Part shown: positions 2,571 through 64,000 of the stretch, one piece after another | How positions within the stretch are numbered: the stretch's first letter is position 1 | Layout: every line of letters starts with the position of its first letter | Assembly: GCA_036172245.1 (NCBI GenBank) | Contig: JAYWIR010000009.1 | Coordinates: forward strand, 1,240,001 to 1,304,000 | DNA: 64,000 nt | Direction of reading: 5' to 3' | Source: Raillietiella orientalis | Taxonomy: Eukaryota | The notes under the pieces: model-generated | Databases searched by the model: none | The model's input: the letters and a program-made list of their open reading frames with translations, nothing else | What the model was told of the DNA's origin: nothing | Position numbers and translations under genes: made by a program

Positions 2571-3595
2571 TCTTTATTTTTGTTTTTTTTATTTCCTTTA
2601 AAGGCCAGTAGCGACCCCACGAGGAGATCGTTTGGCCTAGGATGATGGAAATCCTTGGGTTCTTCTTTTTCTTCTGTCTTCGCTTTTTTTTTTTTTTTAA
2701 AGTGTTTTTTTTTTTTTGGTTCGCTCAGAGCCGGTCGCGTGCCTCGCGGCGCACGTGGCTCTTTTTAAACACACTGTTTTGTTTCCACGCCACTCCGCCT
2801 GAGGCAGCCCGCAGGGGGGCGTGTAATTCTTCAGTGTAATTCTTCAGGATAGGGGGCACCCCGGAAGAGGTCCGCCCTATGAATCCCGGAAGGGCTCGGA
2901 GTCCGTTTCTCCCACGCTTGGGGAGAGATCCCCCCAGATGGGGGGATCGCACCTCCCACCCTGGTTGTCTCCGAAGGGGAACTCCGAAGGGAATCTCCTT
3001 CCTCATTCTCTCCGGAGGGACAACCGGAACCCGGAAGGGGGGTGATCCTCTCCATTTGATATACTCCGGAGGGAACCCGCAAGGGAACCTCTCCTGTTCA
3101 CTCCTCTGAAGAGAACTCCGAAGAGACGCTTCCGAAACTCAGAAGGGGCGCTGCAGCTTCCCGCAGGGAATCGCCCTCGCTTGCTTCCTTGTGCACACTC
3201 TGTGAAGAGGCAGCGACTCGGAGGGTCCCCCCCGCAGCAGGGGAGTCCGCCCCTTTGGACAGCTGGGGAAGTGCCCGTGAGGGCTCCTGCTCCATCTTGA
3301 AACCGGAGGGGTCCCCGGTGAGGGGGGTCTGCTCTCCGTTGCACGACCAGAGGGGGAACTTCCCACCCCTTTATTCCTGGGAGAACCCGAAGGTCGACTC
3401 CCATTGTTCCGGCCTTCATCGGGAGGCCTCCGGCTTTATCCACCGCCGGGGCCACGCCCGAATGTCTCGGCCAACTAGCGCCATCGCAGGAGAAAATCGG
3501 AACACAACGACGCAGTGATGTCAGTTTCTGCCGGAGTATTCGAACCCGCGACGCATGGTGCCACACGCGGAAGCCTCAACCACAAAGCCTCCGAT
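2571..3595 (-). mobile_element. ~1-kb tRNA-derived SINE, copy 1
   Basis: Collinear with 45835-46807 and 62243-63269. The minus-strand head has A-box-like GGCTTTGTGG and B-box-like GGTTCGAATAC, and the tail is A-rich. Degenerate TSD gttctca at 2561 and 3596. Confidence 0.85.
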
Positions 3596-14311: not shown

Positions 14312-17300
14312 CACCTGGACTCGCCTGTCGCCGTAGGATACGCGTAGCCTGCTGGAACGTCAACGGGCTGCGCGATGACGGCAACAGGCGGGACACGGCC
14401 GACACCCTGCGTGACTTCGACCTGGCACTCCTGCAGGAGATCCACGTGATCACCGCGGAGAACGCCCAGGAGATCGAAAGGATCGCAGGGGGTCGTCTAT
14501 TTTGGCAATGCGGCGCTCGCAACACCTGTGGCGTCGCGTTTTTTATGAAGCCAGCAGTCGCTTCCTTCGTCAAGGACGTACGATTCGACAAGGACAGTCG
14601 GGTTGGCCAGCTTATCCTTAGGTGGTCCGATTCGATCGACCTTGTCGTGACTAATGTGTACGCTCCGAGCGGAGGACGCGGGTACGGGGAACGTTCCCGG
14701 TTCCTCGAAACCCTGAAGCGCGACTGGCTGGCGGATACAAACGTACGCAAGGCACAGCTGATCGGAGGGGATTTCAACATCCGCCTGCTCTCAGGTGTGC
14801 CTTGCAGGCAAAAAGACGCAACCAACGAGTTGTGTGCCGCTATGCGTACGCGCAACTTGCTGGGGGACCTACCGGAAATGGCCCAAAGCGTAGACCACGT
14901 CTTCCTTGACGCCGACCTGTGCCCACGGGTCGGCAGACGAGGGAAACTTCCGTCGACGCTATCGGACCACTTCCGGTTGATAATCGAGATTATGCCACGC
15001 GACAAAGGACCACCATCCAGGGCGTGGCGTATGCCAGGGGACTGGACGCGCATCTCCGGTGCGGCGGAACATCTCCGTCAGTTCCTGAGAGGCGTCATCC
15101 TCCGCAACCTCGAAGACTGGGACCGCATGAAGGTCTCGGTCCGCGAGTTCTGTGAGGATTTCCCTTTGCACCGCCTGCCCCGAGAATTTGGTGAAGGGGC
15201 CCGCAACGAAAAAGCGTATTTGCACGCCCGTCGTTTCGCAAGGACCCCTGACGTCCGTCGCTTGGCTGAATACAAAGCCGGGGCCGAGCGTCAAGCATGG
15301 CAAACCGGACCACCCAGCGTGCTGGACGATTTGGACCAGGAACACTCGGAGCCGGCTTCGATACGTCGCCTCGTGCGGGATTTTACTCCTCCCTTTACGC
15401 CAGGGCACCTGCGGAGTGGGACGCCTCGCGGCTCCTGCTTCCAGATGGAACCGCGGCCATAGATGAGGAGGAGAAGGAAAGCCTCGACGAGCCTTTTACG
15501 ACCGGGGAAATCATCAACGCGATTAAAAGGCTCAAAAGGAGTAAGGCGCCAGGGGAGGACGGCCTGCCGGCGGAGTTCTTTCAGTGCTTCGTCGCAGAGC
15601 TGACCCCCCTGGTGCTCAAATTGACATCGCTGATCCGAGACCAAGGCGAGGTTCCTTCCTCGTTTCGGTCAGCCAGGGTGAGGCTTCTCCCTAAGGGAGG
15701 AGACCTCAGGAAATTGAGCAACTGGCGTCCGATTACGATAGTGAACACGGACGCCAAGCTGCTGGCCGGACTGTGGGCTGCGCGACTGGGACAGGTAGCT
15801 GACAGCTCCGTCAGCCCGGAACAGACGTACGCTGTTCCCGGGCGAAGCATGGAAGTGAACCTGTTCTTCGCCAGCACATGGTTCAATCTACAATACGAAG
15901 AAAAAGAGAAGAAAAAAAACAAAATGACGACAAAGCTAATTTGGGAACGCCAGCGCGGCAAACAAGGGACTGCCGGGAAGGGAAGGGGGCTTTAGCGATC
16001 GCAGTCGATCTGCACAAAGCGTTCGACTGCGTGGAACAGGAACTCCTTCTGGAGCTCCTGGATCGCATGGGCTTCCCGGACACTTTATTGGCTTACCTGC
16101 GCGCCTGCTGGCGCAATGCGATCATTAACTTATTTTTTAGAGGACAGCATGTGTTCGGCGTACCGGTGAGGCGCGGCATACGGCAGGGCGACAGCCTGAG
16201 TCCCCTACTCTTCAGCACCTATTGCGAACTGGTGCTGAGAGCATACAGGGTGACATTGGCTGCCCTGCCAAGCTCGTGTCCAGGTACGCCGGCCGTGTCA
16301 GCGTACGCTGACGATCTTTTGCTCCTGCTGCCCATGTCCGCCCCGGCTTCGGCAGTCGAAGATTTCTTCGACTTGTTGAGCCGGGGACAGGACTACAGGT
16401 GAACAGGACGAAGTCGTCGCTGGTTGCGGTTGGTACAACATGGGCGGAACGACCTGATTGGATCCGCCTGGGGATCCCCACGGAGAGGTACTTGAAGTAC
16501 CTCGGCGTTCCGTTGGGGGATTTCTGTCAGTCAGAAGCCTGGTCAGGTCGTCTCCAAAAAGTGGAGTCAGCGATCGGCCCGTTCCTGGAAGGCAAGCTTC
16601 ACTTGCCGGAACGGGCCGCGGTGTGGAACGCGTTCGCGGCCCCCCTCCTTCGCCCCCTGCTTTTTGTTTGCTCCGTACCCCGTGAGATGAAAAAGAGAAC
16701 GAAGGACCTCCTGCGCATCGCCCTGTGGGGCGGCGGGAGGCCTCGTTTGCCTTTAAAGGATTTGTGCGCTCCATGTCGGGACGGAGGTCTTAGCGTCCTG
16801 ACGATGGAGCGAGTGGAAACACAGCTGCGGTGGCGTATCGTAGCCATCGCAGCGAAAATGTGGAACACCCCGTGGTGCGTACCGGCCCGCCTTCTCGCCA
16901 GACGTGTGTCCGAAACTGAAGGACTCGCGTCTTTTCTTCTGTGCCCCGGCCGGAAAAAAAGAAGATGCGGACTTCTCCTGAAACGCATGGCCACCCTGGC
17001 AAAGGAGAACGGGTGGATGGCCTGCAGCCCCGCCAACTCCAGCGCATGGCTATAAGAAACAGTTGGAACGTGGGCAAAGTTAAACGACATCAGTGGAGAA
17101 TCCTGCAACCGCCTGAGCACCGGCATCTACACCCGCTGCACGCTGCGGAACATGATGGTGTGTCCCGCCAGAAGCACATGGGCGGAGACGACCCCACTGG
17201 CCACAGCGCTGCCCTTCCTACGAAGGGCGCTTCAAAACAGCCGGAAGCCGAGGTGGCAAGTCTCCTGCCGGATAGCGGGCAAAGAGAAGGATCTGACTGG

Positions 17301-18165: not shown

Positions 18166-19125
18166 CCAGTCAGATCCTTCTCTTTGCCCGCTATCCGGCA
18201 GGAGACTTGCCACCTCGGCTTCCGGCTGTTTTGAAGCGCCCTTCGTAGGAAGGGCAGCGCTGTGGCCAGTGGGGTCGTCTCCGCCCATGTGCTTCTGGCG
18301 GGACACACCATCATGTTCCGCAGCGTGCAGCGGGTGTAGATGCCGGTGCTCAGGCGGTTGCAGGATTCTCCACTGATGTCGTTTAACTTTGCCCACGTTC
18401 CAACTGTTTCTTATAGCCATGCGCTGGAGTTGGCGGGGCTGCAGGCCATCCACCCGTTCTCCTTTGCCAGGGTGGCCATGCGTTTCAGGAGAAGTCCGCA
18501 TCTTCTTTTTTTCCGGCCGGGGCACAGAAGAAAAGACGCGAGTCCTTCAGTTTCGGACACACGTCTGGCGAGAAGGCGGGCCGGTACGCACCACGGGGTG
18601 TTCCACATTTTCGCTGCGATGGCTACGATACGCCACCGCAGCTGTGTTTCCACTCGCTCCATCGTCAGGACGCTAAGACCTCCGTCCCGACATGGAGCGC
18701 ACAAATCCTTTAAAGGCAAACGAGGCCTCCCGCCGCCCCACAGGGCGATGCGCAGGAGGTCCTTCGTTCTCTTTTTCATCTCACGGGGTACGGAGCAAAC
18801 AAAAAGCAGGGGGCGAAGGAGGGGGGCCGCGAACGCGTTCCACACCGTGGCCCGTTCCGGCAAGTGAAACTGGGCTTCCAGGAAGGGGTCGATCGCCGAT
18901 TCCACTTTCTGGAGACAAGCTGACCAGGCTCCTGACTGGCAGAAGTCCCCCAACGGAACGCCGAGGTACTTCAAGTACCTCTCCGTGGGGATCCCCAGGC
19001 GGATCCAATCAGGTCGTTCCGCCCATGTTGTACCAACCGCAACCAGCGATGACTTCGTCCTGTTCACCCGTAGTCCTGTCCAGAGGCTCAGCAAGTCGAA
19101 GAAATCCTCGACTGCCGAAGCCGGG
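18166..19125 (-). repeat. Inverted copy of family A ORF2 segment 16342-17300
   Basis: Antisense ORF 16599..17126(-) and ORF 18340..18867(+) translate identically except for one residue. The outer ~280 bp carries several substitutions. Confidence 0.92.
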
Positions 19126-21765
19126 ACACGTTAGGATATGTAACCTCGGATGGTCAGATAGCAAAGTTTGCACGTCCCAAAAACTTTGAATGCGATTCTC
19201 GATTTCTGCACTGTATAAGACATGGTCAATCGGTTCGTGGCTGGCTGTTCTCCACTGCAGTCCAAATTCGTCAGACAGCCTTTTGTATGCCGTCCTCCCT
19301 CTGGCGTCCTGAGAATGTGTGATTTCGTTCCGAATATTAAGATCTCCTGCAATAATAACGATGTCTTTGGTTGCCATTCTCTTGCGTAGTGCTTCTTGCA
19401 AGACTTCCGCACATTTGTGTTTAAATTTGTGTGGTCCGTATACGTTTATCACGAAGAGGTGGACGTTAGCAGGCCATGCTAGCCGTACGCCAATATTTCG
19501 TCCTGGCACTGGGCAAAAGGTTTCCAAGATGGCGTGAGCGAGCTAATTTTTAATCGCCACACCCAAGGTTTTTCTCTGTCCTTCGCTGACAAACAGTTGG
19601 CCATTCAAGAGTCGTTCCAGATCTGAAGTATTTTAGTATCCCATTTGATGGGTTTCTTGTAGGCATATGATGTCTTGTTGTGCGATCTTTCGTACAATTC
19701 TTTTTCTTCTCCTTTGGTCTGACAATCCATTAATATTCCAGGAGACAATATTGATCCTCCTGTTGGTTGATAGGAACGAGGCCATGAATGGTTGTTTTTA
19801 CTTTCTTACTTTCCTTCATTTCGTTTACCGGGGAGAAACTTTCTTTCTTCCAGAGACCACAGGCTTTTCGCTTCCTGCATTGCTTTCCGTGCCAGTGAGG
19901 TCGGTGGTCTCCGACTTCTCACCGGCTCAGACTGTAAGCTTCTCCAAGCTCACCCTTTCGCAGTAATCTGCTTCTGCTTTAAGAAGCTTGTTCTCCAGCT
20001 TCTCCCTATGGGCCACTTCCACCGTCTTGTTGATGTCATCTTGAACTTCGCAAAGTCGCCGGATCAGCCGTTCCTGTTCCTTCTTTCCTTCGATTTTTCC
20101 CTCTAAACGTCTTCCGCTAACTTTTCCAGACCTTCATCGACCTGCAGGATTTCTTCCGTAGCCGTGACACTCCCTATCTCTACGCTATCATCATCTCCCT
20201 CTTCTTCCGCCATCTCGCTTTCTTCACCTATTTCCTTTACTTCTTCCACCTCCTCGGGTACCTCCTGTTTCCTCGGGGGTGCTCCCTTTCTCCCCTTCCT
20301 CCTTACTTCCACAAAGCCATCTTCGGACACACTTGGGGCTACTCCCCTTTTCCTCGCCTTCTCTGCAACTTTCCTCGACACTTCTGCCGGTTTTTCTACT
20401 CTTTCCCTCACCGGGAAAAAACCTCGCATAGTACGCCACTTCGCGAACTTTGGACAGTTTGCATGCCCCGAAGTCTTGCAAAAGGCGCACGCCGCCGGCA
20501 TCTGGCACGACCTGACCTGGTGCCCAATGTTCCCACACCGGAAGCATTTGGACCTTGGACAAGTACTGACCGTATGTCCGAAGTACTTGCACCCTCTGCA
20601 GAAAATAGGCTGTTGTCTATATCGAACGTAGACCTCTTGGGAGTCGGCATCAATGTGCTGCAGCCATGGTATCTGAGCCCCTTCTCACAACTTCATTCTT
20701 GCCCTTACGTCTCCGGAAAATACTTTTCCGGCAATGTTCCTGAATTCTACATCCAAGACTTCACCGTATTTGGATAGGAAGTTGCAGATGGCTTGCTTGT
20801 TTGACGTTATGCAAACGCCCCCTAAGAACACTGTGGTGTATGGCATCTCACCGATGCCTCTCATCCATCGTCCTTGGATGTTAATTCCTTTTTCGATCAG
20901 ATCTTCAATTAAGGGTTCACTATCCGTGTATATGGTGAACCCTGTTGTGCTGGGTATTATTGTTTGCACTCATCAAAGTCTACATTAGCCTTAAAGAGGG
21001 CTAGGTAGACTTCTCTTTTGTTACTTATACGTATAAGACCAGTTTCAAACGTGACTGGCTTCACGTCTGCAGTTGTCCGGTTCATCTCTGTTTTCGATCT
21101 CTCTGGATTCTGGCTTACCGAAGTTGCGATTCTGTTGGGCACTAGTGCCCGCCGTCACCGTTGCATACGACTCTTGTTGACTCGTCGCGTTCACTTCCGA
21201 CGATGATCCACTTTCTGACTGCTCTACCTGACTCTGTCCCTGCACGTTGCCTTTGAACTGCCGTGCTTCCGACACTGCCGACCCACATACCTGTTGACTC
21301 TCCCTTTCCGGTCACAGATACAGCCGTGGGTGCTTTCATTGTACAGTGTCCCGACACTGTCTCGGTCGTCTCTCGTTCACTTGCATGTCCCTGCCTGATG
21401 GCGATGTATTGCTGGGCTCTTGCCGTCGAGGTCATAGACATGTCCGGAGGCATTCGCCCTACGCATTGTCCTGACGCTATCTGGGTCGACGCCCTTCCGA
21501 TCGGTCGCCCCTGCATCTTAGCAGTGGACTGCCGGTCTCCCGTCGTTGACGAGGGACACAGACCTTCCACTTTACTCTTGTTCTTCGGAGTTGATCAAGA
21601 TCTTTTTTTACTCTTTCTACACTGTTTTCTGGTCACAGTCTGAAAAATGCTATTTTTAACACTTTTAACTTGCCCGCTTGGGTCACGCAAAAATTGCCGC
21701 GGCAGTTATGTTACTCACTGCCTTGGAGGGGTATTGGGTAAAGTTTTCAAATAGCAATAATCGCG
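19126..21765 (-). mobile_element. Tx1-like family B element, 5' part (ORF1 + APE), 3'-truncated
   Basis: ORF1 pieces with three CCHC knuckles (FCRGCKYFGH, CFRCGNIGH, CAFCKTSGH). APE motifs INIVSWNING, NVYGP, AGDLN, IDHV, LSDH. The 5' terminus is shared with the element at 35127. Confidence 0.88.
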
Positions 21766-21989
21766 GCTCAGTCGCCTTCCTCGCCTACGATACTGCCCAT
21801 GCGTTAGCACCCACTTCGAACTGGTGCTGTGGTCGCACAGGTAAAATCCGAGTCGCCTGCCACGGGTATGCCGAGTTTTTGCTCCTGATATGCCAGGGCA
21901 TCTATAATTCAAATTTAACAAATAATATTTTATAATAAAGTCTATGAGTTTTTTTGATGCAGAAAACGTGGTTCCGGCTGTCCTTGTAA

Positions 21990-32600: not shown

Positions 32601-35127
32601 CGAGGATTTTCCATCCTTACGGAAAACCGCACCAACGGGTGATCCGACAACGTGGTGAGCGTGTCGCGAAAATCTTGAATGCGGTTCTCTAGTTCAGTGC
32701 TGTGAAGAACGTGGTCGATCGGCTTGTGGGTAGCTGTTCGCCACAGCAGCCCGAATCCGTCGGACAACCGTCGATACGCCGTCCTTTCCCTAGCGTCCTG
32801 AGAATGAGTGATTTCGTTCCGAATGTTGAGATCGCCAGCGACGATCACGACGTCCTTGGGCGCGACCTTTTGCCGGAGAGCTGCATGCAGCGCCTCCGCA
32901 CACCGATGTTTTAGTCTGTGTGGCCGTACACGCTCACCAGGAAGAGGTGAACGGTACCGGACCACGCCAGTCACACGCCGATGATGCGTCCCTGCAAGGG
33001 ACAGAAGACTTCCAGAATGGTGGGGGCCAGGTGGTTCTTGATCAAGACTGCCACACCTTCCGTGTTCCGCTGTCCTTTGCTGACGAACATCTGCCCATCG
33101 AAGCGTCGTTCCATTTGCTGTATGATCTGGAGACCCAACGTGTGGGTCTCCTGCAGGCACACGATGTCTTGTTGTGCGATGATCCGCACAATTCTTCTTC
33201 TTTGAACCTGGTTGATCAGACCGTTTACATTCCAGGAGGCGATGTTAATCCTCCTGGCGGTCGATAGAGACGAGGCCATAAAGGGGAAGACCTACTTCTT
33301 GGCCTTCCTGAATTTCTTTTGTCTGGGAGGTTGTGATCTCCCAGACGAAGAAGAAGCAGCGGGCTTCTCGCTGCCAGCGTCACTCTCCGTTTCGGTGAGG
33401 TCGGTAACATTGGCCTCCTCGGTGGAGTGCTCGGCTTGTGTGACGAGTTTACGTAGAAGTACTTCCAACGCCACACTAGCTCAGAAGTTTGCCTTCACGT
33501 CGAGAAGCTTGTCCTCCAGCTTCTCGCGCTCGGCAGTTTCCACCACCTAATTGATGGTTTCTTGCGCATTGAAGATCTTCTGCAGTTGTTCCTGCTGGGC
33601 TCCGCTCTGCGCCTCCGCCACTGCTTCTGCAAGTTGTTACACCACTTTGGTGGTCTGCAGGGCATCCTGCGACACCGGGGTGTGCTCTGGCGTTCTCGCC
33701 ACCTCGCCTTCCTCAGTGACTTCCATCCTGTCGGCCTCCTCTGCCACTACTTCCGGGATAAGAGGAGTTTCCTGCTCCTTGACGAGCATCTTCCTCTTCC
33801 CCTTCTTAACAACTTCTACGAAACCGTCCGCCGAGACCGGATCGGCCTCTTTCACCTTCCTCTGATTTACTGGTTTTTGAGGTTTCACAACCTCCGCCAA
33901 TACCCTCTCCCGCACGGGGGATTGGCCACTCATGGTCCGGTAGTTGGCAAACTCCGGACAGCACCACTTTGCATGTCCTGGCTGCTTGCAAAATGAGCAG
34001 ACTTCGGGCATGTCGCAGCCACGCACCTGGTGTCCCTGCTTCCCACATCGGAAGCATCGAGACCTGGGGCAGGCGTCCATTCGGTGCCCAAAGTTTTTGC
34101 AGCCGGTGCAAAAGACCGGCTGCTACCTATATCAAACGGAGACCTCTTAACAGTCTTCGTCGATATGCACAATCCCAGGAATCCGTGCCTCCCCGTTCAA
34201 TTTCATCTTGGCGATGACTTCTCCCGAAAATATGTTTCCGGAATTTTACTTCCAGACCTCACCATATTTGGACAGAGAGTCCCATACCGTCTCCTGCTCA
34301 GTGATGATGCCTATACCGCTCAAAAAGACAGTCGTGTACGGCATTTCGCCGATACCACGCACCATCCTTCCCTGTAGGTTAATGATCTTCTCAATTAGGA
34401 CCTCTCGCAAATGTTCACTATCTGTATATATTGTGAAACCCGATGTACTCGGGATGATCGCCTGAAGGCGGTCGAAGTCCACATTTGCCTTGAATAAGGC
34501 CAAATACACTTCTTTAATGTTATTGAACCGAATCAGTCCGGTTTTTAAAACAATCGGTTTTGATACCAGGCTAATCCAGACAATATGTTCTTTCCATCTA
34601 GTGATGTTCCCTCTCTCGGGCATTCCAAATTTTCTATTTGGCTGGGCACTAGCCTGGCCAGCCGTCACCGCCGCGTACGAAAAAGGCTGCACCACCGCAG
34701 CCGAACAAGCTGGCGTCGCGTTTCTGCACCCCGTGAGCCACGCGGACGCCCGCGGGTCCCGCCTGGGATTCCGCCGTCGCCGCGGGAGTGACCGTTGTCG
34801 CCGCGGGCGCGATCCTTGGCGTCGCCGCCACCTCGCCAATGCCGTACGTTACCTCCATTGCCATGGGGACGTCGGCCTCTCCACTTCTCTTGCTTCCTGC
34901 ATCCTCGCGGCTAGCACGGCCGCTAGGGAAATTGGCAGGGCTTCCACCCTGGACTCCTCGGAGCTGCTGCTGCAGATGCTGAAGATGGTCCTTGGCTGCA
35001 CTGTCGCTTCCACACTAACTTTCACCTTCACTTGCCCTCTCGGGGCACGCAAAAATTGCCGCGGCAGTGATGTTACGCACTGCCTTGGCGGGGTATTGGG
35101 TAAAGTTTCCAAGTAGCAATAATCGCG
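29628..35127 (-). mobile_element. Full-length but disrupted Tx1-like family B element (ORF1, APE-RT-CCHC ORF2)
   Basis: ORF1 ends at 33292 and has three CCHC knuckles. ORF2 starts at 33279 (MASSLSTARRINIASWNVNGL) and includes DMEKAFD, GVRQGDSLSP, YAND and CTACGDIDTRLHDLTC, ending at 29761. Several stops and frameshifts. Confidence 0.9.
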
Positions 35128-35224
35128 CCTCCCTTTAGATCAGCGGCGGCTATACTGTACGTGCGCGAGGCTAACTGACAGTCCTCGTCTCAGCAGGAGA
35201 GGAGCGATCTCTACCTGACTCTGT

Positions 35225-45003: not shown

Positions 45004-45093
45004 GCATCGGCGAAACCTGGTTTGGGCGGGCGTGTTTTTTGGTCGCTCCGTCAGCGACTGTCTGGGAAGCGAGTTCCCGTCTTTTTGTAAGGT

Positions 45094-45128
45094 ATCGCTT
45101 CTCAGCCTTTTGGCTAAGATCAAAGTGT
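45094..45128 (+). pseudogene. U2: 3'-truncated U2 snRNA fragment (first 35 nt)
   Basis: atcgcttctcagccttttggctaagatcaaagtgt matches the U2 5' end with one G>A change. It starts exactly at U2 nt 1 and stops inside the branch-point recognition sequence GUGUAGUA. Confidence 0.88.
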
Positions 45129-45834
45129 GTGGTGTGGATCGCTGGTGTCCGATGGCAACCTTGCCGGAGGACACCGCGATGGTGGTTGGCGTGGGGGAGG
45201 CAATTCCTCCCACACCACCTGCATAGTTGGGGGCATCTGCCCCAGGATCCTCTTCGCAGCCTGCGAGGAGCTGAAGCGCCATAGTGCCGCGCCTAGCGCG
45301 GAAACCATGGCAGAGATGGCTGCCTATAAGGACTATGGATACAAGCCTTCGCTTGTATACAAGGTAGGTCCCTTATACGAAGGCCAGACGGCACGCTCTT
45401 TTAGTAGGGCGTTGCAGGAATTAAACGTACGTGAAGATCTTGATGGTCTCACCGTGTTCAGAGGAGCGCAGCGAGTAGAGGTGGTATGCAAGGAGTTCAC
45501 CTTGTCTCAGCGCTTAATTAATACACCGCTGGTCATGGACGGCCGCAAGATCTTGCTGGTGACGATGAACCGCTCCTTCGTGGGCCATCTCACTGGCATC
45601 ACTAACCGCATGACGCGGTCTTCGGTTAGTGATGAACTCATGAAATATGGCGACGTACATGCACTCTGGCCTAATCCCACTGTTTTTGAGGGCTATAATG
45701 GCCTTTTCGGGGGCCAGGCTGCGGCGCGTCACCGTAAAAGAGGATGGTGGGCTCCCCCACAAACTGGAGGTCGGAGAGTCGATCGACCTCTGGTACGTGG
45801 GGCAGCCTCGGTATTGCGGTTACTGCAATGTAGT

Positions 45835-46807
45835 TTTTTTTTTTTCTTCTGTATTCGCTGTTTTCCTTCCAGCTTTTTTTTTTAAGAGTTTTCTTTTTTT
45901 TTGTTTGCTAAGTACCTCAGAGCCGATCGTGTGCCTCGCGGCGCACATGGTTCTTTTTAAACATCAACACACTGTTTTGTTTCCACGCCCCTTCGCCCGC
46001 GGCAACCCGCAGGGGGGAACCAGTAATTCTTCAGTGTAATATTCTTCAGGATAGGGGGCACCCCGGGATGGGGTCCGCCCTATGAATCCAGGAAGGGCTC
46101 GGAGTCCGTTCTCTCGCACCTCCCACCCTGGTTGTCTCCGAAGGGGAACCCCGAAGGGAATCTCCCCTTCCTCATTCTCTCCTGAGGGACCCCCTGGGAG
46201 GGGAGTGGTCGTCTCCATTTCAACTTCTCCGAAGGGAACCCGGAAAGGATCCGCTTGTATGAATTTCTTCTCCGGAGGGAACCCGCAAGGGAACCTCTCC
46301 TGTTCACTCCTCTGAAGAGAACCCCGAAGGGACGCTTCCGAAACTCAGAAGGGGCGCTGCAGCTTCCCGCGGGGAATCGCTCTCGCTTGCTTCCTTGTGC
46401 ACACTCTGTGAAGAGGCGACGACTCGGCGGGACCCCCAACAGGGGGTCCGCTCCTTTGAACAACTGGAGAGGTGCCCCTGAGGCCTCCTGCTCCATCTTG
46501 AAACCGGAGGTGGTCCCCCGGTGATGGGGGTCCGCTCTCCGTTGCACGACAGGTGGGGGAACTCCCCACTCCTTTATTCCTGGGAGGACCCGAAGGTCGA
46601 CTCCCATTGTTCCGGCCTTCATCAGGAGGCTGCCGGCTTTTTGCACCACCGGGGCCACGCCCGAATGTCTCGGCCAACCAGCGCCGTTGCAGGAGAAATT
46701 CGGAACCCAAACGAGGCAGTGGCGTCAAGTTATCTGCCAAAGTATTCGAACCCGCGACGCATGGTGCCACGTGCGGAAGCCTTAACCACAAAGCCTCCGA
46801 CGCGGGC
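45835..46807 (-). mobile_element. ~1-kb tRNA-derived SINE, copy 2
   Basis: TSD aatgtagt at 45827-45834 and 46808-46815. It splits an ORF1 zinc knuckle. The head starts GCCCGCGTCGGAGGC. Confidence 0.9.
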
Positions 46808-49800
46808 AATGTAGTAGGACACATTCGTAAGTGGTGTCCGAACATTCAGTGCCACCTGTGCGGAGAAAAGGGCCACGTTCGCCACGTGTCCCCTAAGCGC
46901 CCCTGCTCGGTTCCCCCTGCCGCCAAAAAAGCGCAGGGGAAACGGGCAAGTAAGGTCGTAAGACCAACTGTGGAAAATGGCCGGCACAAACTCCCGGCGC
47001 CTCAACCTCCGAAAGAGACGTCGGAGGATAAACCTTCTGAAGTGGTGGAAGGCGAAGAGGGCTGGCAGTTGTAAAGGCCAGGAAGGAAAAGAAGGTTCCA
47101 ACCGTGGAAAAAGAGAAGGAGAAAAAGCCGGCCGGTAAGAAGAAAAAAGCTGCGCCGCGCTTCAAAACTCTCCGTGAGTGCTCGGTGGGGGTAGGAGCAT
47201 ATGATGGGGTGAGGGCAGCAGAACGGCTGCAGCTATAGCATATTTTAGGAATGGTTCCTCAACATGAGATTACATTGCCCGTCCCGAGGGAGCTTCCCGT
47301 GAAGAAACAACAGCTTAGTATCTCTTCCTGCTCACGCAGTGGAAGCACTGCATTGCTGGTCGGTGGTTGCGGGATCTCGAGCTCCGTTATAAGGTTCTGG
47401 AGGTTTCGTCGTGAGAGCATCCGTGAGCTCCCCCGTGGTCCACTGATCTAGGGGTCGCGCGGCCCCTGCTGTGTTGCAAATATTCCCATGTTGCCTTTGT
47501 CTTCCCTCCGTAGAGCGTTGAGAGTGGCAGCTAAAGAGATAGCAGCTACGACCTTTCTCTTAGGAGGGTCACTCATGGAACGTTTGAGGGACTCTTCTCA
47601 TATTTTCCAAATAGCAAACGTCTTCAGGTAGTGTCAGTTGGATCCAGGGATCTATCTTTTTCTGTAGGTGGAGATCTTAGTTTGTGGGGCAGCAGTAGAT
47701 CCGGAATCACCTATTTCCTCAAGGAGAAACTGAGAGAATGCAGCATTGCTGTTTCGGAACCCGCACAACCAACTGCATTCTTTAGCATACATTTGACTGG
47801 CAGAGACTAAGGCACCATAGTCTGCGTGAGACTCAATTTGATGAATCCTTTTGAGTTTCAGAAGGTTCAGCCCTGCCTTCTAGCTCTAGGAAATGCTTTC
47901 CGAAAGGATTCATGACATGGAGATGTCCCATGGTTTGCAGCAGGTCATTCGACCCCTGATGGCCGATGAGATAGTTATGTGGCTCCACAATGCTTGATTT
48001 AATAGCTCCAAACATTTGTCTATATGAAAGATACTAATTCTGTCACAGGTCTTTAGTAAGTGCCCACCGGAACCACAAACCTCACTCCATGACCACATCA
48101 AATGTATCGGAGATCACAAAAATCGAAATCGATTGCACCTAAGGGTGTTCATCTAAATGGGAGAAACAAAAGCATCCTTGCAAACTGAAAGCATGAATCT
48201 CATTGATTCAAAGAGTCACTGCTGTCAACTTTATAACTCTATTATCTAAAGCATTTTTTTGTTCGACTTTTGGGACGGATCCATTATCGATAAACAATTA
48301 TACATTGCTTCAAAAAATGGTAGTTAAATAACTTCACTAAAACACTGGAACAATACAACGTGAAAAAAATTTTGCAAAAAGAGCAAAATCAAATTATCAT
48401 TAAGTAACGTTAGCATGGATTATTCCTAAAGTTAGTTTAATCATTCTTAATTAATCATTTGATCTGTGACTTGAAAATGCTAAACTTAAAGCTCAGTTAC
48501 CAAGTGCTGATGGTCATCTCCCTTCATAGAGTCTTATGTCTTCATTACAAATATGTAATGCATGCTTTCGAAATCAAGTCAGGAAGCCTCTTAGAAACTG
48601 ACTAATTGCAAGTAATTTTCACAACTTTCCAAGTCACCTTACAAAACACTCGAACGTCTGAAGCAGCTGAGAACGAATGTTTCCATGACAGCAGGACGGG
48701 ATGCGAGAACCTCAGCTTTTAGCCAGTCTGCATTTCTTAGTCTTTTCTCCCTTGTTCTCCGTTCTCCTGAAATTTCGTGTCACATGTACTTCTTCTACAA
48801 TTTGCAAATTACAAAGTGAAAGCACACCTTTTCCGTGGACTGCAGCAGATGATCGATGGATTTCAGAAGCTGCGGCTTCTCTGTTTTACGGAGAATGCTC
48901 TTGAGACCACATGCCCAGTGGTAGATATCAATTTCTAACTGGAGATTCACAGTCTCAGTTACAGCCGGTCCGTCCTCCTTTCCGGTTTGCAGCTCCAACT
49001 GGCACAGTACTGTACTTCCAATAGACTTGAACCGCTTTTGCATGCAGACCCGGGGCCGAGTTCGAGTACGTCACCCTTAGGCAGTTCTCGACTGATAAAA
49101 GTGCTTTAAAAAATGAATGCAGCAAACTGAATCCGCTCACGCATTAGTCTACCGAAGCAAAGGTGCCACCGAACAACTGCGATGACCGTCGAGCCGCTTC
49201 CTCGGTGTTGATTTTTAGCACTTTCTCATTCATTATCTCCGATCCGTCACGAACTGGTCGATAAACAAAATGGTCTCGAAAGTCATTCAAATCGCCATGC
49301 AACCGTCAGTGTGCACACATTCAGCTTTTTGCCGCTTTTTCGCGATCACTGCGCGGCTTTTTCTTTTTTTTCGCAAACGCTGCCGCTTTCGCTCTCGAGG
49401 AGAAACTCAACACGTTCATTCATCACCACTCACCATACAAGGAGGAAATCTCAGTTCAAGTACCCTACTTACAATGAAACATGTGCTAGATTATAAAGAT
49501 TAATGTATGCTTCTCACTGGGATCCATGAATGGAATACAAAGATATGTGATGCTCCGGATTCTGGATAACAAGCTGGAAAAACTTTACAGCAGAACCTTT
49601 CCAATATTTTTTTTTTTTTTTTTTTTTTTTTTGTGGCTATTTATGTGTGTGTGTTTTTTTTTTTTTCTCTCAAGAATGAATTGAATAACTTTGCGCTCTT
49701 GTGTCTTTTTTTTTTTTTTAGAGCTCTCTTTATAGGGCTATTACTCTCCTTTTGGGGAGTAATGCCTCTTAAACTCTTGCATTTTTTTTTCACTTTTTCT

Positions 49801-49873: not shown

Positions 49874-52800
49874 CTATCGCCTCCAGCTGCGATCTTCAGC
49901 TTCCTCCTCCTCTTCCTCATCAAAAATATCCTCACTGAGCAACTCCTCTTCCAAAGTCTACAACACAATTAATACGATTTGATTTCCCAAATCATGTTAC
50001 CTCATCCACTGGCCCATCATCCACTGTAGGTTGCTGAATATTGTTAGCATTCTCTACAAACCAGCAAATGGAGAGAAAGCGTCCCTTAAAAATGGCACCC
50101 TGACTCAATGCTACTTCAGCATCTTTCCTTGTTTTGTAATGAAATATCGCACTGGTATCTTGGCATGTATGCTCTTCCAATTCACCAAAATGCTACCCAT
50201 CTCCATTAATACACTATTAGTTAAGCTTTCAATTACCATAAAATGATCTAGTGCATCCAGCATCTCATTAGGCTCAAGTCCAGTAACCAAAATTTTGCGA
50301 GGTCTCTTGTCAAGAGATGCTGACTGTGGAGGGACGAAAGGTTTGGAAGTTGGTCGGGCTTTAGCACCATGCCAGTGTTTGTTCTTCAGCTTAGATGCAA
50401 CTGGAGTCCCAGGAATCACACCCAGAAATTTTGCTTGGCGTTTGAGTAGCATAACCCGATGCTGCAATTCGGTAATGTCGCCTCCTTCTTTCTGGCATGT
50501 ATATAAATCCAGCTCTGCATCCAGAAGCTCCTTTTCGGCCTGAATTGAAGCATACTTTATTCTGTTTCTCGAATTTGCCTAACCTCCTTCCTAGTCCTTG
50601 CCAATGGTTTCTGAGTAGCCATTTCCAAACGTAAAGATTCTACACTTTCTTGTAAAGATCGGATGGTAGCCATAATCAGTTTCTTTTCATCGGCCTTCAT
50701 GGTAGCTTTGTTGCGCTCAACTTTTAAGATCAACAACTTTTGCTGCTGAATTTGCTTTTCAAGGAGTTCTTGCTTCCTCTTTTGAATGCTGACTCGCATA
50801 CGCACTGCCTCCTTTTTCCGTTCTTCTTGCTTTTTTTTCAAGGTTTCCTTCACTGCCAAATATTCCTGGTTCTTGTAAATAGCTTCCAAATTCTGGAGAC
50901 AGCTTGGATGTACATGGTAAATCTGAGTAAAGTACAAACCTTTGCTTTCTCATCTTCCTCATTTGGTGAAGTTTTCAGCAATTCTGGATACACCACTGTT
51001 TTAGTCAGATTAGATTCATTGAAAAGTACCTAGGAATAATATCAGCTTAAATCGCAGCATGTACACCAACCTTTTCCTCGACATATTCTTTTTTCTCTGA
51101 GGGAATCTTGGAACTAAACACTTTATTGGGATTGGGAGCAGTTTTAATGCCTAAACGTTCCTTGACAGGAAGCTTAGATGCAACCACTACGTTGTCTTTC
51201 TGGGCTTCTTCTTCTTTATGCCAAAATACTTTGATGAAACGATTGTTGAGAACTGCTTCAGTGCTCTTGTAGGCTGCATTAGCTTCAGCATGACTAGAGA
51301 ACGTGACCAGTGCTCCCTCAGGATCATCTTGAAAATTTACTTGAATGTTCACAATTTTGCCAAACTTGCTGAAGTGATTATTTAAATGGCTGATATCATT
51401 CAGCCCTCTAGGCACTTTGCGCAACTCTAGACAACAGTTTTGTGGATCATAACGGCGGTTTCCACGAGAAACTTCCAAAGAAGCTCTTTTCCTTCCTTGG
51501 TCCACCATATGTCCATTACTGCATGTATCTGCATTGCGTTTGCCTTTTCGTGAGTTTCCAGAGTCCACCATGGGAATGTTAATAAGTTCTCGTTGCTGCA
51601 CAGAATAAGTCTGGTGTCCTGAAAATCAGATAGTACTGCATAACATGTCGATCTCACACTGTACCTTGAAAACGAGGGCGCACAACACGGGCATGGTTAT
51701 TATGCATGGGTGGCGGAGTGAAGCCCCAAGTATCCATGCTAGGAGTAGCAGGATTATATGGTTCTATTAAAATTATGAAATGAAATTATTTTTTCTGATT
51801 ATGTAAACTAACCTGGTGGAGGTCTCCTGATAGGGGGCATACCTACAATAGGATGTGGAGGTATACTTGGTGGAGGCACAGATGTTGGAGGAAGTGAATT
51901 TGCAGCTGGCTGTCCAGAAAAACCAAGCACCTGTGGGAGAGCAATGTCTTCAAGCACCACAGGATCAGTACCATGATCAAAAGGGCATAGGTCTCCTCTC
52001 ATGCAGTAACCTTTCTCTAAAAGAAAGCAATCGGTAACTTTCCTGTGCTCTTTTACCATCAAAATCACGACATCGCTTTTTCGAACTTCCTAAATATGGA
52101 GTCATTTCCATGACGGTGCCCTGCAAAACTGGAGGAGCCACTCTTAAATCCACATCACCATGACTGGGTTCAGGTGTTGGACCAGAGTTGGATGGATTCA
52201 GATGATAATTACGTCCAGGACCACGGAATCGATCTACACTGAAATTTCAACGAGTATTGCTAGGGTCTTTGTATCACCTGAAGAACGGGACCTAGTCCGA
52301 GATTTCCCTTGATGAAAAGAAGGAGAAGGACTAGAACGCAACTGGGAATGTGACTTGGAGCATGACCTAGATCTAGATCGGCTCTTCCAATCTCTGATGA
52401 TACTTTTGCTTGAGGCTAACTTTCCTTAAGATACCCTTCCCACCTGCGATCTCTCTCCCTTCTTCCTGCAGGTTTTCGTTTGCGTTCATCTCTTCCTCTT
52501 TCTTTATCTCTTTCTCTGTCTCGAGAACGATCTGCAAACTTTCGTTCTCTCTCTAAACTTCGGGAACGGGACTTTCTGCCATGAAATGTAGTAGCTTTGC
52601 TGCGACGCACATCTTTGTCAAAATGATTCTCTTTGTCCTGAAAAGAAAAACAAATTTCAACACTTAAAGCACTGTAATTTGTACTGACATTTTCCAGTTT
52701 TTTGGAAAGATGGCTGCAAGAGTCCATTTTTGTGTTTTGTCCATGAGAGGATGATGTAGAACAAATTGGAGGGGCTACAGGAGGCACAATGCCTGTTGAT

Positions 52801-55745
52801 GGCAATGTAGAAACTCCTTGTGGAAGCACACTTTCTTCAAGATAATTTTTTTTGACCAAAGTTTCAAAAAGTAAGTCCACAAAAGACTTAGTTTCTAAAA
52901 ACACAACACATGTTTCATTCAAAGTCAAAAAAATAAAAAAGCATAAATCTTATTTTAAAATGCAAATGAATTGAGCTATCTATTCACCAAATTTATCAAC
53001 TGTTTGGTCTAAAACCCATTAAAATTCTTTATTCTAGTAGCATTGTAATTAGCTATATAAAGGAAGACAATCTGCATTTAATATTTATATGCATGTGAAT
53101 GAAAATTCAATCATATACACAAAACAGAAAACATATTACAAAAGAATACATCATCGTTTCCATCGATCACGAGACCAAAATTAAAGTACCACTATTATTC
53201 TTATCCAAAAGGTTTTTGCCTATTCTAAGCATAAATTTGCCTAACTTCTCTCCACTGTAATTGACATATGCTTTAAACAAGTACCATAGTTATTTGAAAA
53301 CAAATTTGCAAAGTTACAATTTCAGAAACAGTTACCTTGTTGCAAGAAAACATCTAACTGATCAATACATGTGTTTTTCAATTCTGCTTCTGGTTTGTCT
53401 TTCTTGACTAATGCTATTACATACTTAGCCAATGCAGCTGGATCAGCATCACATCTGCATACATCATAAAATTTTACAAATACAATATACATATTATCAA
53501 TAGCACATGATGCAATGTTGTCTAATCCTAAAAGTTTATTTGATCATTTTCATGCTCTAATTCAATATCATACATCTAACAGACTCACTTTAGTAACATG
53601 ACATTTTATCATTTTATAGAATTTATTTTAATTCTTCTATCTGCACCAACGGAGGTTGTCAATGTAAAAATTTTCAAGGAAATATTCTTAATATAGAACT
53701 AATTCCGGGAACAGCACTGTAAGAAATTCTTTCAATCAAACATAATAAAGAATTTCAAAAAGTAAAAATAAAATAAAATAAAATAAAAATAAGAAGCAGT
53801 ACGATAATCAGCTATGCTGAAAAATACCACTGAGCTACTATTAATTATTCATCACACACAACAAATGACTGTATTAAACAATGTTAAGGATGAACAGTTT
53901 GAAAACTATTTTCTTCTATCAGAATTCAAGGTTAACAGCATATTCTTTTAATAAAATGGGTATGCACCAAGTTTTGCACTTAAACTTACTTATGATGCAA
54001 TCAGTTTCACTAAGAACCATAAAAAGAATACAACAAAAATGTTATCATAAACATGAATGCTGTTAACTAATGTTGTTGTTAATTGTCCATGAATCAGAAA
54101 CATGTACAAGTTTAAAAAACATATACAGCAATCATGAACTCAAATCTAGTGACAAAAATGCATATGCTCCATATGTACAAATTCCTAAATCGCTTTACAT
54201 TCCCACAAAATGGACATAAATTTACTATCCAATCGCAATAGTTAACAATGATAAGCTACCAAGCTAAGTCAGTTCAAATGTTCAAATGCTTTTCATATCT
54301 ACATCGTGCACCAATGGTCCCACTATTATTTTACTGATGATGAAATATTTTTTTTGTGCACCTTAAACAATGCGAATTATTTCTAACTACATCACGTGAG
54401 TAACAACTACTGATTCAACATGCATTTAATCCACATGATATTGTTGCTTGTACAAAATTGGGAAATAATCGCAAAATAAAATGCCTATTCTGAGAAGTGC
54501 TTAGGACATAAAATGAAATGAACTGAAAACGCCATTTTAAACATGAAAATTTGATTTCTATGCCACAAGAAATTACAAACCTGATATTGAAGTTTTTTCA
54601 CAAATTAAGGAAAAACATAAAAATTATTTTAATACTGATGGTGTGGAACCTCAAAACAAATGCAATACCTCAAAAATAAAACAGCCACCCCAAGAATTAC
54701 TCAAACATCCAACAAATTTGAACTGTTTTTGTTAATGCTGTTTTCCTTTTAACTATGACTATTTAAGTCCTGATGTGTTGAAGGAGGAATAAATTTCACT
54801 TACGTGTCTAATCTGCTCCTTTTAAATCGATAATTTTTATGTCATTCCATATGATGGTAACTTAACACGACTATACCTTATCAAATATCTATCTCATTTA
54901 CAGATTTTCACATATATATGAACACAACTGTACAAGGCATGAAAAGCACAAAGAACTTGCAACATATATGAGAGTAAAATATGTTGCAATATATTTAAAA
55001 TATGTTCTTGAATTTAAACCAGTTTATCAAAAGGCAGCTAATCCTTCAGCACTTGCTATTACAGATATCGACTTGGTACTATCATTTAAAAAAAGATTCT
55101 GGAAGTTCTCATACAAACATATAACTGACTGCAAACCAAGTGTTTATGCTAGGAAAAACAATCAAATTTTTATGCATTTTCTTCTTTGACAAAACCAAGT
55201 TTATACAAACACGCAACTTCTTCTCATGACACTAACTTCATGACATGCAACAGCTAATTATCCAAATTGAAATTTCTAAAGAAAAGACGGCGGTGTAACA
55301 ACTGAATTTAACGTGCAGGAGTCATTCATATATGAAATTTGTTTTACACAGTCTAAGTTTTCAAAGGTTCATGAAATCATATGGTATGAATATTTAAAGT
55401 TCTAAAAACGAGGAAACAATGCTACTATGGTGCTCAATAAAAAGGCATAAGCTAAAAATTGGTCACAGTGAATTACAAAATGGACACTAAACAACATGAT
55501 AGTGTCTGGACATTGTGTACAATACATGAACAAGTAATCTAAACAGGAATCAATTTAGAACAAATTTACTTTCTGCAAAGGAAACAAAGTTATCTAGAAT
55601 TTCACAGACTAACTAATAAAGATACGTTAAATGTATCCACTTGCAAGATTTCTTGTTAATTTCCAAAAAATATAAAATTTACTTACAGTGGTTCCAAGAC
55701 ACCAGTAAGCCAAACTTTTAAGGATTCTTGGTTCTCGATTAACAT
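49874..55745 (-). CDS. RBM26: RNA-binding protein 26/27 (PWI, CCCH zinc finger, RRMs; swm-like), 14 coding exons
   Basis: Exons read by hand with GT-AG boundaries: 55687-55745, 53336-53454, 52689-52894, 52444(or 52435)-52637, 52278-52393, 52057-52233, 51813-52016, 51665-51763, 51071-51618, 50940-51029, 50584-50892, 50237-50539, 50001-50192, 49874-49957. Motifs: MLIENQESLKVWL..LEPLCDADPAALAKYV..CIDQLDVFLQQETKSFV, RCRDFDEKGYCMRGDLCPFDHG, LNNHFSKFGKIVNIQV..EAVLNNRFIKVFW. The C-terminus is EDRSWRR. Confidence 0.95.
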
Positions 55746-62200: not shown

Positions 62201-62242
62201 TCACAAGGTGTTGGAGCTCCTGCAAGAAATGCAAATGCTTAT

Positions 62243-63269
62243 GCCCGCGTTGGAGGCCTTGTGGTTAAGGCTTCCTCATGTGGCACCGTGAGTCGCGGGT
62301 TCGAATACTCCGGCATGAAACTGACGCAACTGCGTCGTTGGGTTCCGAGTTTCTCCTGCAATGGCGCTGGTTGGCCGAGACATTCAGGCGTGGCACCGGT
62401 AGCGGTTCAAACCGGAAGCCCCCGATGAAGGCTGGAACAATGGGAGTCGACCTTCGGGCCTTCCAGGAATAAAGGAGTGGGGAGTTCCCCCTCCGGTCGT
62501 GCAACGGAGAGCAGACCCCCCTCCCCGGGGACCCCTCCGGTTTCAAGATGGAGCAGGAGCCTTCAAAGGCACCTCTCTGGTTGTTTAAAGGAGCGGATCC
62601 CCCTTTGTTGCGGGGGGGAACCCTGCGAGTCGCCTCCTCTCCAGAAAAGTGCAAGGAAGCAAGCGAGGGCGACCCTTCTGAGTTTCGGAAGCGTCCCTTC
62701 GGGGTTCTCTTCAGAGAGGTGAACAGGAGCGGTTCCCTTGCGGGTTCCCTCCGGAGAAGAAATTCCTACTAGCGGATCCTTTCCGGGTTCTCTTCGGAGA
62801 AGATGAAATGGAGAGGACTGCCCTCCCCATGAGGGGGGTGTCCCTCCGGAGAGAATGAGGAAGGAGATTCCCTTCGGGGTTCCCTTCGGAGACAACCAGG
62901 GTGGGAGGTGCGATCCTCCCCGTCCGGGGGGGATTCCTTCCCAAGCGTGAGAGGAACGGACTCTGAGCCCTTCCTGGATTCATAGGGCGGACCCCACCCC
63001 CATCCCGGGGTGCCATATCCTGATGGTTTTCGCAGGCGGAGAGGCGTGGAAACAAAGCAGTGTGTTTAAAAAAAAGGGCCACGTGCGCCGCGAGGCACGC
63101 GACCGGCACTTAGTGAACCAAAAAAAAGAAAACCGAAGAAAAAGCACACACACACAAAAAAAAAGAAAACCCGAAGACATGGCAGAAAAACCCTAGGATT
63201 CCCATCATCAATAGTAACGATCTCCTCGCGGGATCGCTACTGGCCTTAAAAAAAAAAAGAAAAGAAAAG
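62243..63269 (+). mobile_element. ~1-kb tRNA-derived SINE, copy 3
   Basis: 10-bp TSD aaatgcttat at 62233-62242 and 63270-63279. A/B-box-like head, terminal hairpin and A-rich tail. Confidence 0.92.
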
Positions 63270-64000
63270 AAATGCTTATCGACTGGGTGATAAACTGCTA
63301 TGTGGTATGTGGTGGTTTTACTTCTCGGGACAGGGTGGGGCCCGAGCTGTGAACATCATCGCTCAATTTTCTAATTCGCTGGACTTTTATCGTGTGGATC
63401 TAGAAGAGGAGGCATTCGTGCTCAAGAAAGTGAACACCACAAGGCGTTTGTGGAATCCAAGATGTGGGCATCATTAATGGACATCTGAAACTTCATTTCA
63501 GATGCCAGCAGCGATACACATCACAAGTTGCATCTGCTAGGACAAGTAGGAACGGACGCTGTGCGATATATGGAGCAAAAATCTGATGATGACCGTTCCA
63601 TGCAATGATTTTTTACTCCGTGCATTGCTCCATGTATCTACAGAATTTCGTATATCTTTCGAAAGTCTTGTGCAGATCCGAAAAACAAGTGGACTTGGTT
63701 CAAGCTTGCAACGGAAACAACCTGAGCAAAGATGAGCAACCACGGATCTCTGTGAGGTGGTTCCAGCAGGTGAAGGAGACGCGCCTCCTTGGAGATACGT
63801 GCCTCCTTCACGCCTGTTAACGAAGAGGCTGCCTGGGTAGCTGAGCGAGCTCAGCAGCCTCATCTCAGTCGGTTGGGCGTGCCCACTTCTATTGCAGGGA
63901 TAATAAGGCAAATGGGAGCATCACCTGAAAAAACGTCTGCCCCATTGCAAAATCCGAGTTCTTCCTGCCATCCCTTCATCAGGTGATTACGACACCGGCA

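Follow-up and report, generated by a model that had tools for sequence, protein, structure and literature searches.

The 64-kb window, by which we mean the whole stretch of DNA analysed, carries three copies of an element that behaves as a SINE yet exceeds the stated size limit for SINEs, and this SINE is the landing site of an L1/Tx1-type LINE. We favour, with moderate confidence for the reading as a whole, a non-coding tRNA-headed retroposon of ~1.05 kb whose body consists of ~14 hairpin units grown by slippage, whose fold is weakly selected in source elements only, and which serves the LINE as passenger as well as landing site. Under this reading, Pol III would make the SINE RNA, the short interrupted hairpins would give a 1-kb RNA the compactness and stability needed to enter a LINE particle, and the LINE ORF2 protein would bind near the terminal hairpin. 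Reverse transcription would have three possible starting points, namely the A-tail, internal A runs and the heptamer ATC(A/G)TCC. The LINE endonuclease would also cut this heptamer in SINE DNA, so that the SINE would be landing site and passenger at once. The reading implies no function for the host.

A SINE of about one kilobase

The flagged element, copy C, is a ~1.03-kb retroposon with a tRNA-like head and an A-tail, flanked by a 10-bp target-site duplication (Table 1). Three ~1-kb copies had been predicted in the window and all were located, copy C on the plus strand and copies B and A on the minus strand; the four module strings quoted with that prediction (62691-62718, 62729-62756, 62774-62802 and 62864-62893) all lie within copy C. 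The predicted loss of whole blocks was likewise recovered, as copy A lacks M9, copy B most of M12 and copy C half of M6. A target-site duplication was sought around copy A and none was found. Dense decayed LINEs with endonuclease and RT domains fill the left three-quarters of the window, and BLAST of the SINE consensus against the window LINEs gave homology for neither body nor tail.

Table 1. Positions of SINE copy C, its parts and the two other copies in the window
Feature	Position	Strand	Remarks
Target-site duplication, left	62233..62242	+	10 bp; two occurrences of the 10-mer in the window, at 62233 and 63270
SINE copy C, entire	62243..63269	+	young subfamily; ~93% identity to its own consensus over aligned bases
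tRNA-related head	62243..62316	+	box A-like 62260-62270; box B-like 62299-62309
Units M1-M6	62442..62678	+	62442-62464, 62474-62494, 62506-62538, 62550-62578, 62590-62626, 62655-62678; predicted bulged hairpins; half of M6 deleted
Units M7-M11	62688..62887	+	62688-62712, 62726-62752, 62769-62795, 62810-62847, 62860-62887; array of the original prediction
Units M12-M14	62903..63018	+	62903-62941, 62952-62975, 62982-63018; predicted folds
Hairpins M15 and M16	63024..63107	+	little or no similarity to the units; M15 partly deleted in copy C
Internal A-rich stretch	63119..63190	+	end point of several copies with target-site duplication, e.g. copy B
Heptamer site ATC(A/G)TCC	63204..63209	+	copy C lacks the last base of the heptamer and the next six
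Terminal hairpin, then short T run	63210..63247	+	T2 in copy C
A-rich tail	63248..63269	+	copy C
Target-site duplication, right	63270..63279	+	matches the left 10-mer
SINE copy B	45835..46808	-	stops within the internal A-rich stretch; 10-bp duplication 45825-45834 / 46806-46815
SINE copy A	2597..3594	-	tail complete; first 8 nt absent

In the 210 Mb of genome searched for copies, a single 30-mer of the SINE had 289 exact matches on many contigs and its reversed control had none; a family 30-mer had no exact match in metagenome contigs, a set from which records of this genome itself were perhaps left out. Besides copy C, 40 copies were scored, with 78-89% identity to it. Rows L031, L061, L091, L099, L102 and L128 were dropped as duplicates, and the further loci L045, L052 and L090, as well as L022 and L029, were dropped from the sets. 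A consensus built from 32 copies is ~1.06 kb long and runs from the tRNA-like head through the body, the A-rich stretch, the terminal hairpin and the T run to the A-tail. Full-length young copies (n=25) measure 739-1105 nt, with a median of 1033 nt, and older subfamilies at 70-78% identity have the common layout with other unit content. Target-site duplications of at least 9 nt flank 8 of 30 copies, compared with 15 of 870 mismatched pairs, and were found for 16/26 full-length young copies against 30/400 controls.

By hand count, tRNA-Gly(gcc) and tRNA-Arg(cct) of the same genome match the head at ~63-64% identity across 75-79 gapped columns; the comparison covered 30 of 62 tRNA hits, none of them His, and Gly, Arg and Glu score similarly as candidate parents. 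The head contains one box A-like and one box B-like motif. ARAGORN reports no tRNA anywhere in the window, head included. The first 44 nt of the head (consensus 1-44, window 62242-62285) are predicted to refold as one long hairpin of ~20 bp, with no cloverleaf, and pairs changed between subfamilies are still paired there in four of five cases. Transcription by Pol III is hinted at by the box A/B-like motifs, by sharp 5' ends and by the absence of an internal T5 in 25/25 full copies; internal T4 runs occur in 9/25, and a scripted test placed a T4 after the terminal hairpin in 10 of 25 full-length copies.

Set against the criteria of SINEBase, the family exceeds 100 interspersed copies (289 matches of the 30-mer), its head lies marginally above 60% tRNA identity over at least 60 nt, and its duplications, A-tail and lack of a protein (the consensus has no open frame above 167 codons) indicate non-autonomous retroposition. 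Its median length lies above both the definition of <700 bp and the working criterion of <1 kb.

The expectation of a long, structured and modular SINE body outside known RNA families held up: the element has head, duplications and A-tail, is longer than the 75-662 nt of SINEBase, and has no match in Rfam at the gathering score, with a best E-value of 0.6 in a permissive scan. This result argues against a ribozyme, a piece of rRNA or another known structured RNA as the origin of body or tail, which we consider very improbable. A sharp 3' end just before the terminal hairpin, as described below, would fit self-cleavage; the tail folds as a plain hairpin and, inspected by eye, shows none of the downstream elements of an HDV-type fold. 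The only Rfam matches in the window at the gathering score are two full-length U4 snRNAs, at 21672-21810 and 35034-35172 (-), with 79 and 75 bits, in a duplicated stretch amid LINE fragments.

Body units and their predicted fold

The module-like pattern of the original prediction occurs seven times in the body of copy C, compared with a mean of 0.03 and a maximum of 2 in 300 shuffles. The prediction had counted about five modules; we find ~14 related units instead (M1-M14, 62442-63018), of which M7-M11, the array first noticed, are the five most similar to one another (pairwise z 3.9-10.9 against shuffles). The units are 30-45 nt long, are spaced 30-63 nt apart and follow one plan, i.e. a GGAG-like arm, a short 5' bulge, an inner stem with a small internal loop, a variable loop and a CTCC-like arm. 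A single long hairpin has a probability of 0.89-1.0 in 12 of 16 segments, and each of the ~14 units is predicted to form one bulged hairpin (GGAG...CTCC). The proposed double hairpin with UUCG loops is not supported by the predicted fold: its second hairpin has a probability of 0.0 in M8-M11 and 0.14 in M7 (0.31 in copy C), and across copies of M8-M11 the second pair of that hairpin is almost always a C.A mismatch (paired in 0-3 of 47-53). What had been read as a second hairpin consists of the 3' arm and the GGAGA after it. Of the 14 units in the young consensus, just three (M1, M7 and M11) have UUCG as their inner loop.

The array folds better than shuffled controls. Local folding of the sense strand at 62660-62960 gave z -3.4, with 0/60 shuffles equally stable, and unrestricted folding of 62640-62980 gave z -2.5, with 1/100 shuffles as stable. 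Unrestricted folding prefers a long rod spanning M8-M13, and in the model these units can thus pair as one rod rather than as unit hairpins. The outer stems are paired at 57 of 60 positions over 15 segments, compared with 40.7 when the arms are permuted (0/20000 permutations as high), in a test that is partly circular because the unit borders were picked by eye from the fold; the outer arms occur as GGAG/CTCC, GAAG/CTTC, GGAA/TTCC and AGGG/CCCT. Tandem Repeats Finder detected only the A-tail and not the array, and a MAFFT alignment of 12 units is poor across the variable middle. A deletion of 43 nt at M8/M9, exactly one period, occurs in 9 of ~54 young copies. Microhomology of at least 4 nt borders 7 of 21 deletion clusters, compared with 4% of random ones. 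The recurrent one-period deletion and the microhomology fit gain and loss of units by slippage, and the body has likely grown from one self-complementary unit of ~40 nt that slippage duplicated again and again.

Whether the fold matters had been made to depend on stems being more conserved than loops across many copies. For private changes they are not, with 0.0266 changes per G/C cell in stems and 0.0282 in loops; inserted copies decay neutrally in stems and loops alike, with no constraint on the fold. For variants shared by at least 4 of 59 young copies they are, with 53 variants in 202 stem G/C columns versus 34 in 67 loop columns (p=0.014). Differences between subfamily consensuses fall in stems versus loops at 25/300 versus 33/212 (p=0.016) in one comparison, 27/294 versus 42/213 (p=0.0009) in the second and 28/262 versus 30/172 (p=0.06) in the third. 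In most of these tests, stems receive shared changes, whether among copies or among subfamilies, at roughly half the rate of loops, and CpG effects on the comparison are small. The old subfamily (55 copies) shows no difference between stems (113/158) and loops (63/82; p=0.76). The bias for G.U over A.C is weak (young 23:15 versus 76:86, p=0.15; old 49:39 versus 54:77, p=0.04), compensatory cells are barely above expectation (19 versus 15.7 and 63 versus 46.5), and pairs changed between subfamilies are kept in 10/17 cases in one direction and in 7/21 in the other. An RNAalifold check suggested with the original prediction gave 0/48 compensatory pairs for the three window copies and is of little value, as the interval taken for copy A overlapped only partly. 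Taken together, these data suggest that the fold is likely under weak or modest constraint, and in source elements only.

The same data can be read as neutral. In that case the array would be a by-product, in which slippage duplicated a GC-rich palindromic unit, template switching or inheritance keeps its arms complementary, and the fold is irrelevant to spread. This agrees with both strands folding about alike (z -4.9/-4.9), with the neutral private variants, the old subfamily without signal and the compensatory cells near expectation, with one subfamily comparison in which 14 of 21 changed pairs are broken, and with the tolerance of whole-unit deletions bounded by microhomology. It does not readily account for stems having only some half the frequency of shared variants and subfamily differences in spite of the faster mutation of G/C sites, nor for the 5' bulge and the internal mismatch that persist across units, both of which palindrome correction would tend to erase. 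We therefore regard neutrality of the array as rather unlikely, if still to be reckoned with.

A stronger role for the units has also been proposed, namely that they form a multivalent binding array for one protein, either the LINE ORF1 protein with its two CCHC knuckles or a host factor, so that more units would give better mobilisation. CCHC knuckles can bind GGAG; the window LINE ORF1 has two CCHC motifs, an unpaired GGAG is predicted after each of M8-M11, and ~14 units share a common shape. The loops vary freely, however, many copies lack some of the units, unit content differs among subfamilies, and the predicted fold places most GGAG motifs in stems. On balance such an array seems doubtful to us, and weak constraint on the fold in source elements remains our preferred reading of the body.

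The 3' end of the SINE and an L1/Tx1-type LINE

Many 5'-complete copies stop 40-52 nt short of the tail end, at the heptamer ATC(A/G)TCC before the terminal hairpin. This applies to 8/32 young and 17/56 old copies, to 7/20 copies picked solely by the M7 30-mer and, judged by eye, to 27/91 young-type and 11/14 old-type pattern matches, the young and old heptamer patterns capturing only about three-quarters of exact matches. The idea that a long insertion has split what were full copies was rejected, since a sense LINE follows only 2 of 26 (L112 and L119) and no displaced tail lies within 9.5 kb downstream in 20/20 copies checked. A third LINE junction behind a heptamer-ended SINE is complex.

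Target-site duplications are scarce in heptamer-ended copies (1/22), and the one match among a further seven belongs to a tandem neighbouring copy. For young copies, the comparison is 1/7 heptamer-ended versus 16/26 full-length (p=0.04), and young copies with other internal ends have duplications in 7/16 cases. The scarcity of duplications, together with a stopped fraction that grows with age from young-type to old-type matches, would fit a post-insertional origin of the hot spot. Here the LINE endonuclease, or a cruciform of the terminal hairpin, would break the heptamer, and repair would remove the tail and the right flank; for this LINE the SINE would then be no more than a target, and mobilisation of the SINE would be due to another LINE of the poly(A) type. 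By eye, a fold-back inverted repeat at the heptamer in two copies and a tandem repeat of the site in one (among C1:6831738, C14:3006407, C23:1305214 and three places on C26) also point to such loss. On the other hand, the heptamer-ended copy at locus L002 has a perfect 14-bp duplication, at a target that resembles the heptamer; the duplications at other internal ends indicate that internal priming does occur; and the tail is present on two LINE copies that have no SINE upstream. We consider post-insertional loss a genuine possibility that falls short of probable. Within the same set of places, three identical copies pass from the heptamer straight to an A-tract without the hairpin.

A tail-like match led to an L1/Tx1-type LINE, a putative member of the Tx1 clade. 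Its endonuclease and RT parts match the window LINEs, and among relatives with an informative name the best is a 149-kDa TX1 protein from alligator (E 1.3e-12, 32%). Using only the 3' region of the LINE, free of tail and SINE sequence, as the query, we found 29 distinct loci. Most LINE ends have a small hairpin followed by the heptamer; LINE end plus heptamer has 50 matches genome-wide, ~18 of which, by eye, continue into the SINE tail. At 17 of the 29 loci, the 1.5 kb upstream of the LINE contain a SINE that stops at the heptamer, and the truncation points of the LINE are variable. Longer LINE copies starting behind a heptamer-ended SINE were found at three of four extended loci, which brings the total to 20/29 and indicates a target-site preference of the LINE. 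The flank after the heptamer is duplicated on both sides of the LINE in 8/17 cases versus 7/272 controls, and in 4/11 versus 1/110 when only unique flank is counted. As the LINE starts at the heptamer and the flank is duplicated, the LINE inserts into DNA at this site.

The SINE is likely a passenger of the same LINE too, as suggested by the common end point, the duplication at L002 and the two tailed LINE copies without an upstream SINE. Eight of 30 LINE ends carry the 50-60-nt tail of the SINE; a SINE lies upstream of most, so the tail may be a remainder of the target there, and two of the eight (L127 and L149) have no SINE within ~5-7 kb upstream, the pattern that a tail carried on LINE RNA would produce. 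The site-targeting LINE copies are old, with 74-79% identity to the query, and lie behind old-subfamily SINEs, a point against this LINE as driver of the young subfamily. A derivation of the SINE tail from the LINE was considered separately and downgraded once the LINE was found sitting inside SINE ends.

Passenger and target could also be joined more tightly, in a closed SINE-LINE loop. The heptamer would then be both the site where the Tx1-type endonuclease cuts DNA and the start of reverse transcription on RNA, the LINE would live in the 3' end of the SINE that it mobilises, and a selected array of ~14 bulged hairpins would act as a multivalent scaffold, through which a Pol III RNA of a kilobase could hold its own in the competition for LINE proteins. 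We think this complete version unlikely.

Several LINE ends lie elsewhere. LINE 3' ends are found reversed inside SINE copies, at L029:3255-3300 and 3500-3530, where the front part of the SINE is hit (around position 158), and at L089 and L090, just after the SINE. Five LINE ends (C10:7028, C10:17942, C10:1845687, C37:2209251 and C94:27625) pass from the heptamer into another common sequence, which is perhaps a second target or SINE tail. In the window, a 5' fragment at 45090-45125 (+), directly before a LINE start (ORF1 start near 45153), is presumably U2 snRNA-like; such a fragment before the LINE start is as in Keno-type Tx1 elements. A similar U2-like fragment lies 5' of the SINE copy at locus L018.

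Relation to described elements

SINEBase lists 175 SINE families of 75-662 nt (PMC3531059, Vassetzky and Kramerov). Like the tRNA SINEs described there, the present family has a tRNA-related head, a body of unknown origin, an A-rich tail, dispersed copies, subfamilies and duplications; unlike them, it measures ~1.0-1.1 kb, above <700 bp and, narrowly, above <1 kb (PMC3531059). The closest body is that of CHRS, a quasi-oligomeric SINE in which a degenerate ~20-nt motif is repeated more than 10 times, with variants by repeat number (PMC3531059). Both bodies consist of a degenerate repeated motif whose number varies, whereas the unit here, compared with CHRS by description only, is 30-45 nt plus linker and self-complementary (PMC3531059). 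The original suggestion of an undescribed SINE class is overstated, as quasi-oligomeric bodies are known.

Tx1-clade LINEs that target transposons have been described for Tx1L in Tx1D and for Tx1-Mar in Mariner-N4_AMi, the latter with SINEU passengers (Kojima 2015, PMC4494074). The likeness lies in a Tx1-type LINE at a fixed site in a mobile element, with a SINE that probably uses the same machinery. In the Tx1-Mar/SINEU case a third element is the common target, whereas here the LINE targets the 3' end of the SINE itself, and the heptamer is where SINE and LINE both end (PMC4494074). For the 3' ends, tailless retropseudogenes offer a parallel, since they are 5'-complete and 3'-truncated copies, defined by their duplications, with preferred end points in unpaired regions (PMC5322556). 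Heptamer-ended copies share the completeness, the truncation and the preferred end points, but most of them lack duplications. Internal priming by a target-like RNA sequence, as proposed here, is described for SART1Bm (PMC7265360). The LINEs in these two precedents are mammalian L1 or R1, while the host LINE here is L1/Tx1-like (PMC5322556, PMC7265360).

Our literature search, run mostly outside subscription journals and repeat databases, found neither a hairpin-array SINE nor a LINE targeting the 3' end of a SINE. What sets the family apart from the closest kinds is its length, the self-complementary unit and the use of the SINE's own 3' end as LINE target. If the fold is selected, the family would provide a natural series, with at least two subfamilies and variable unit number, for testing the role of the SINE body, which is unexplained for most families; the series bears also on why SINEs are normally short. 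At the 3' site, a Tx1-type endonuclease has a concrete candidate target, in a case where one element may be passenger as well as target. With a neutral array, what is left would be a long SINE specific to one lineage, mainly of interest for repeat annotation.

Two further features of the window were noted. Exons of an RBM26/27-like gene lie at 50111-53543 (-), with best matches to insect proteins at ~45-55% identity over most of the exon, which suggests an arthropod as host. An inverted duplication of 960 bp, 97.8% identical, links 16342-17300 and 18166-19125 and consists of LINE ORF2 sequence amid decayed L1/Tx1-type copies.
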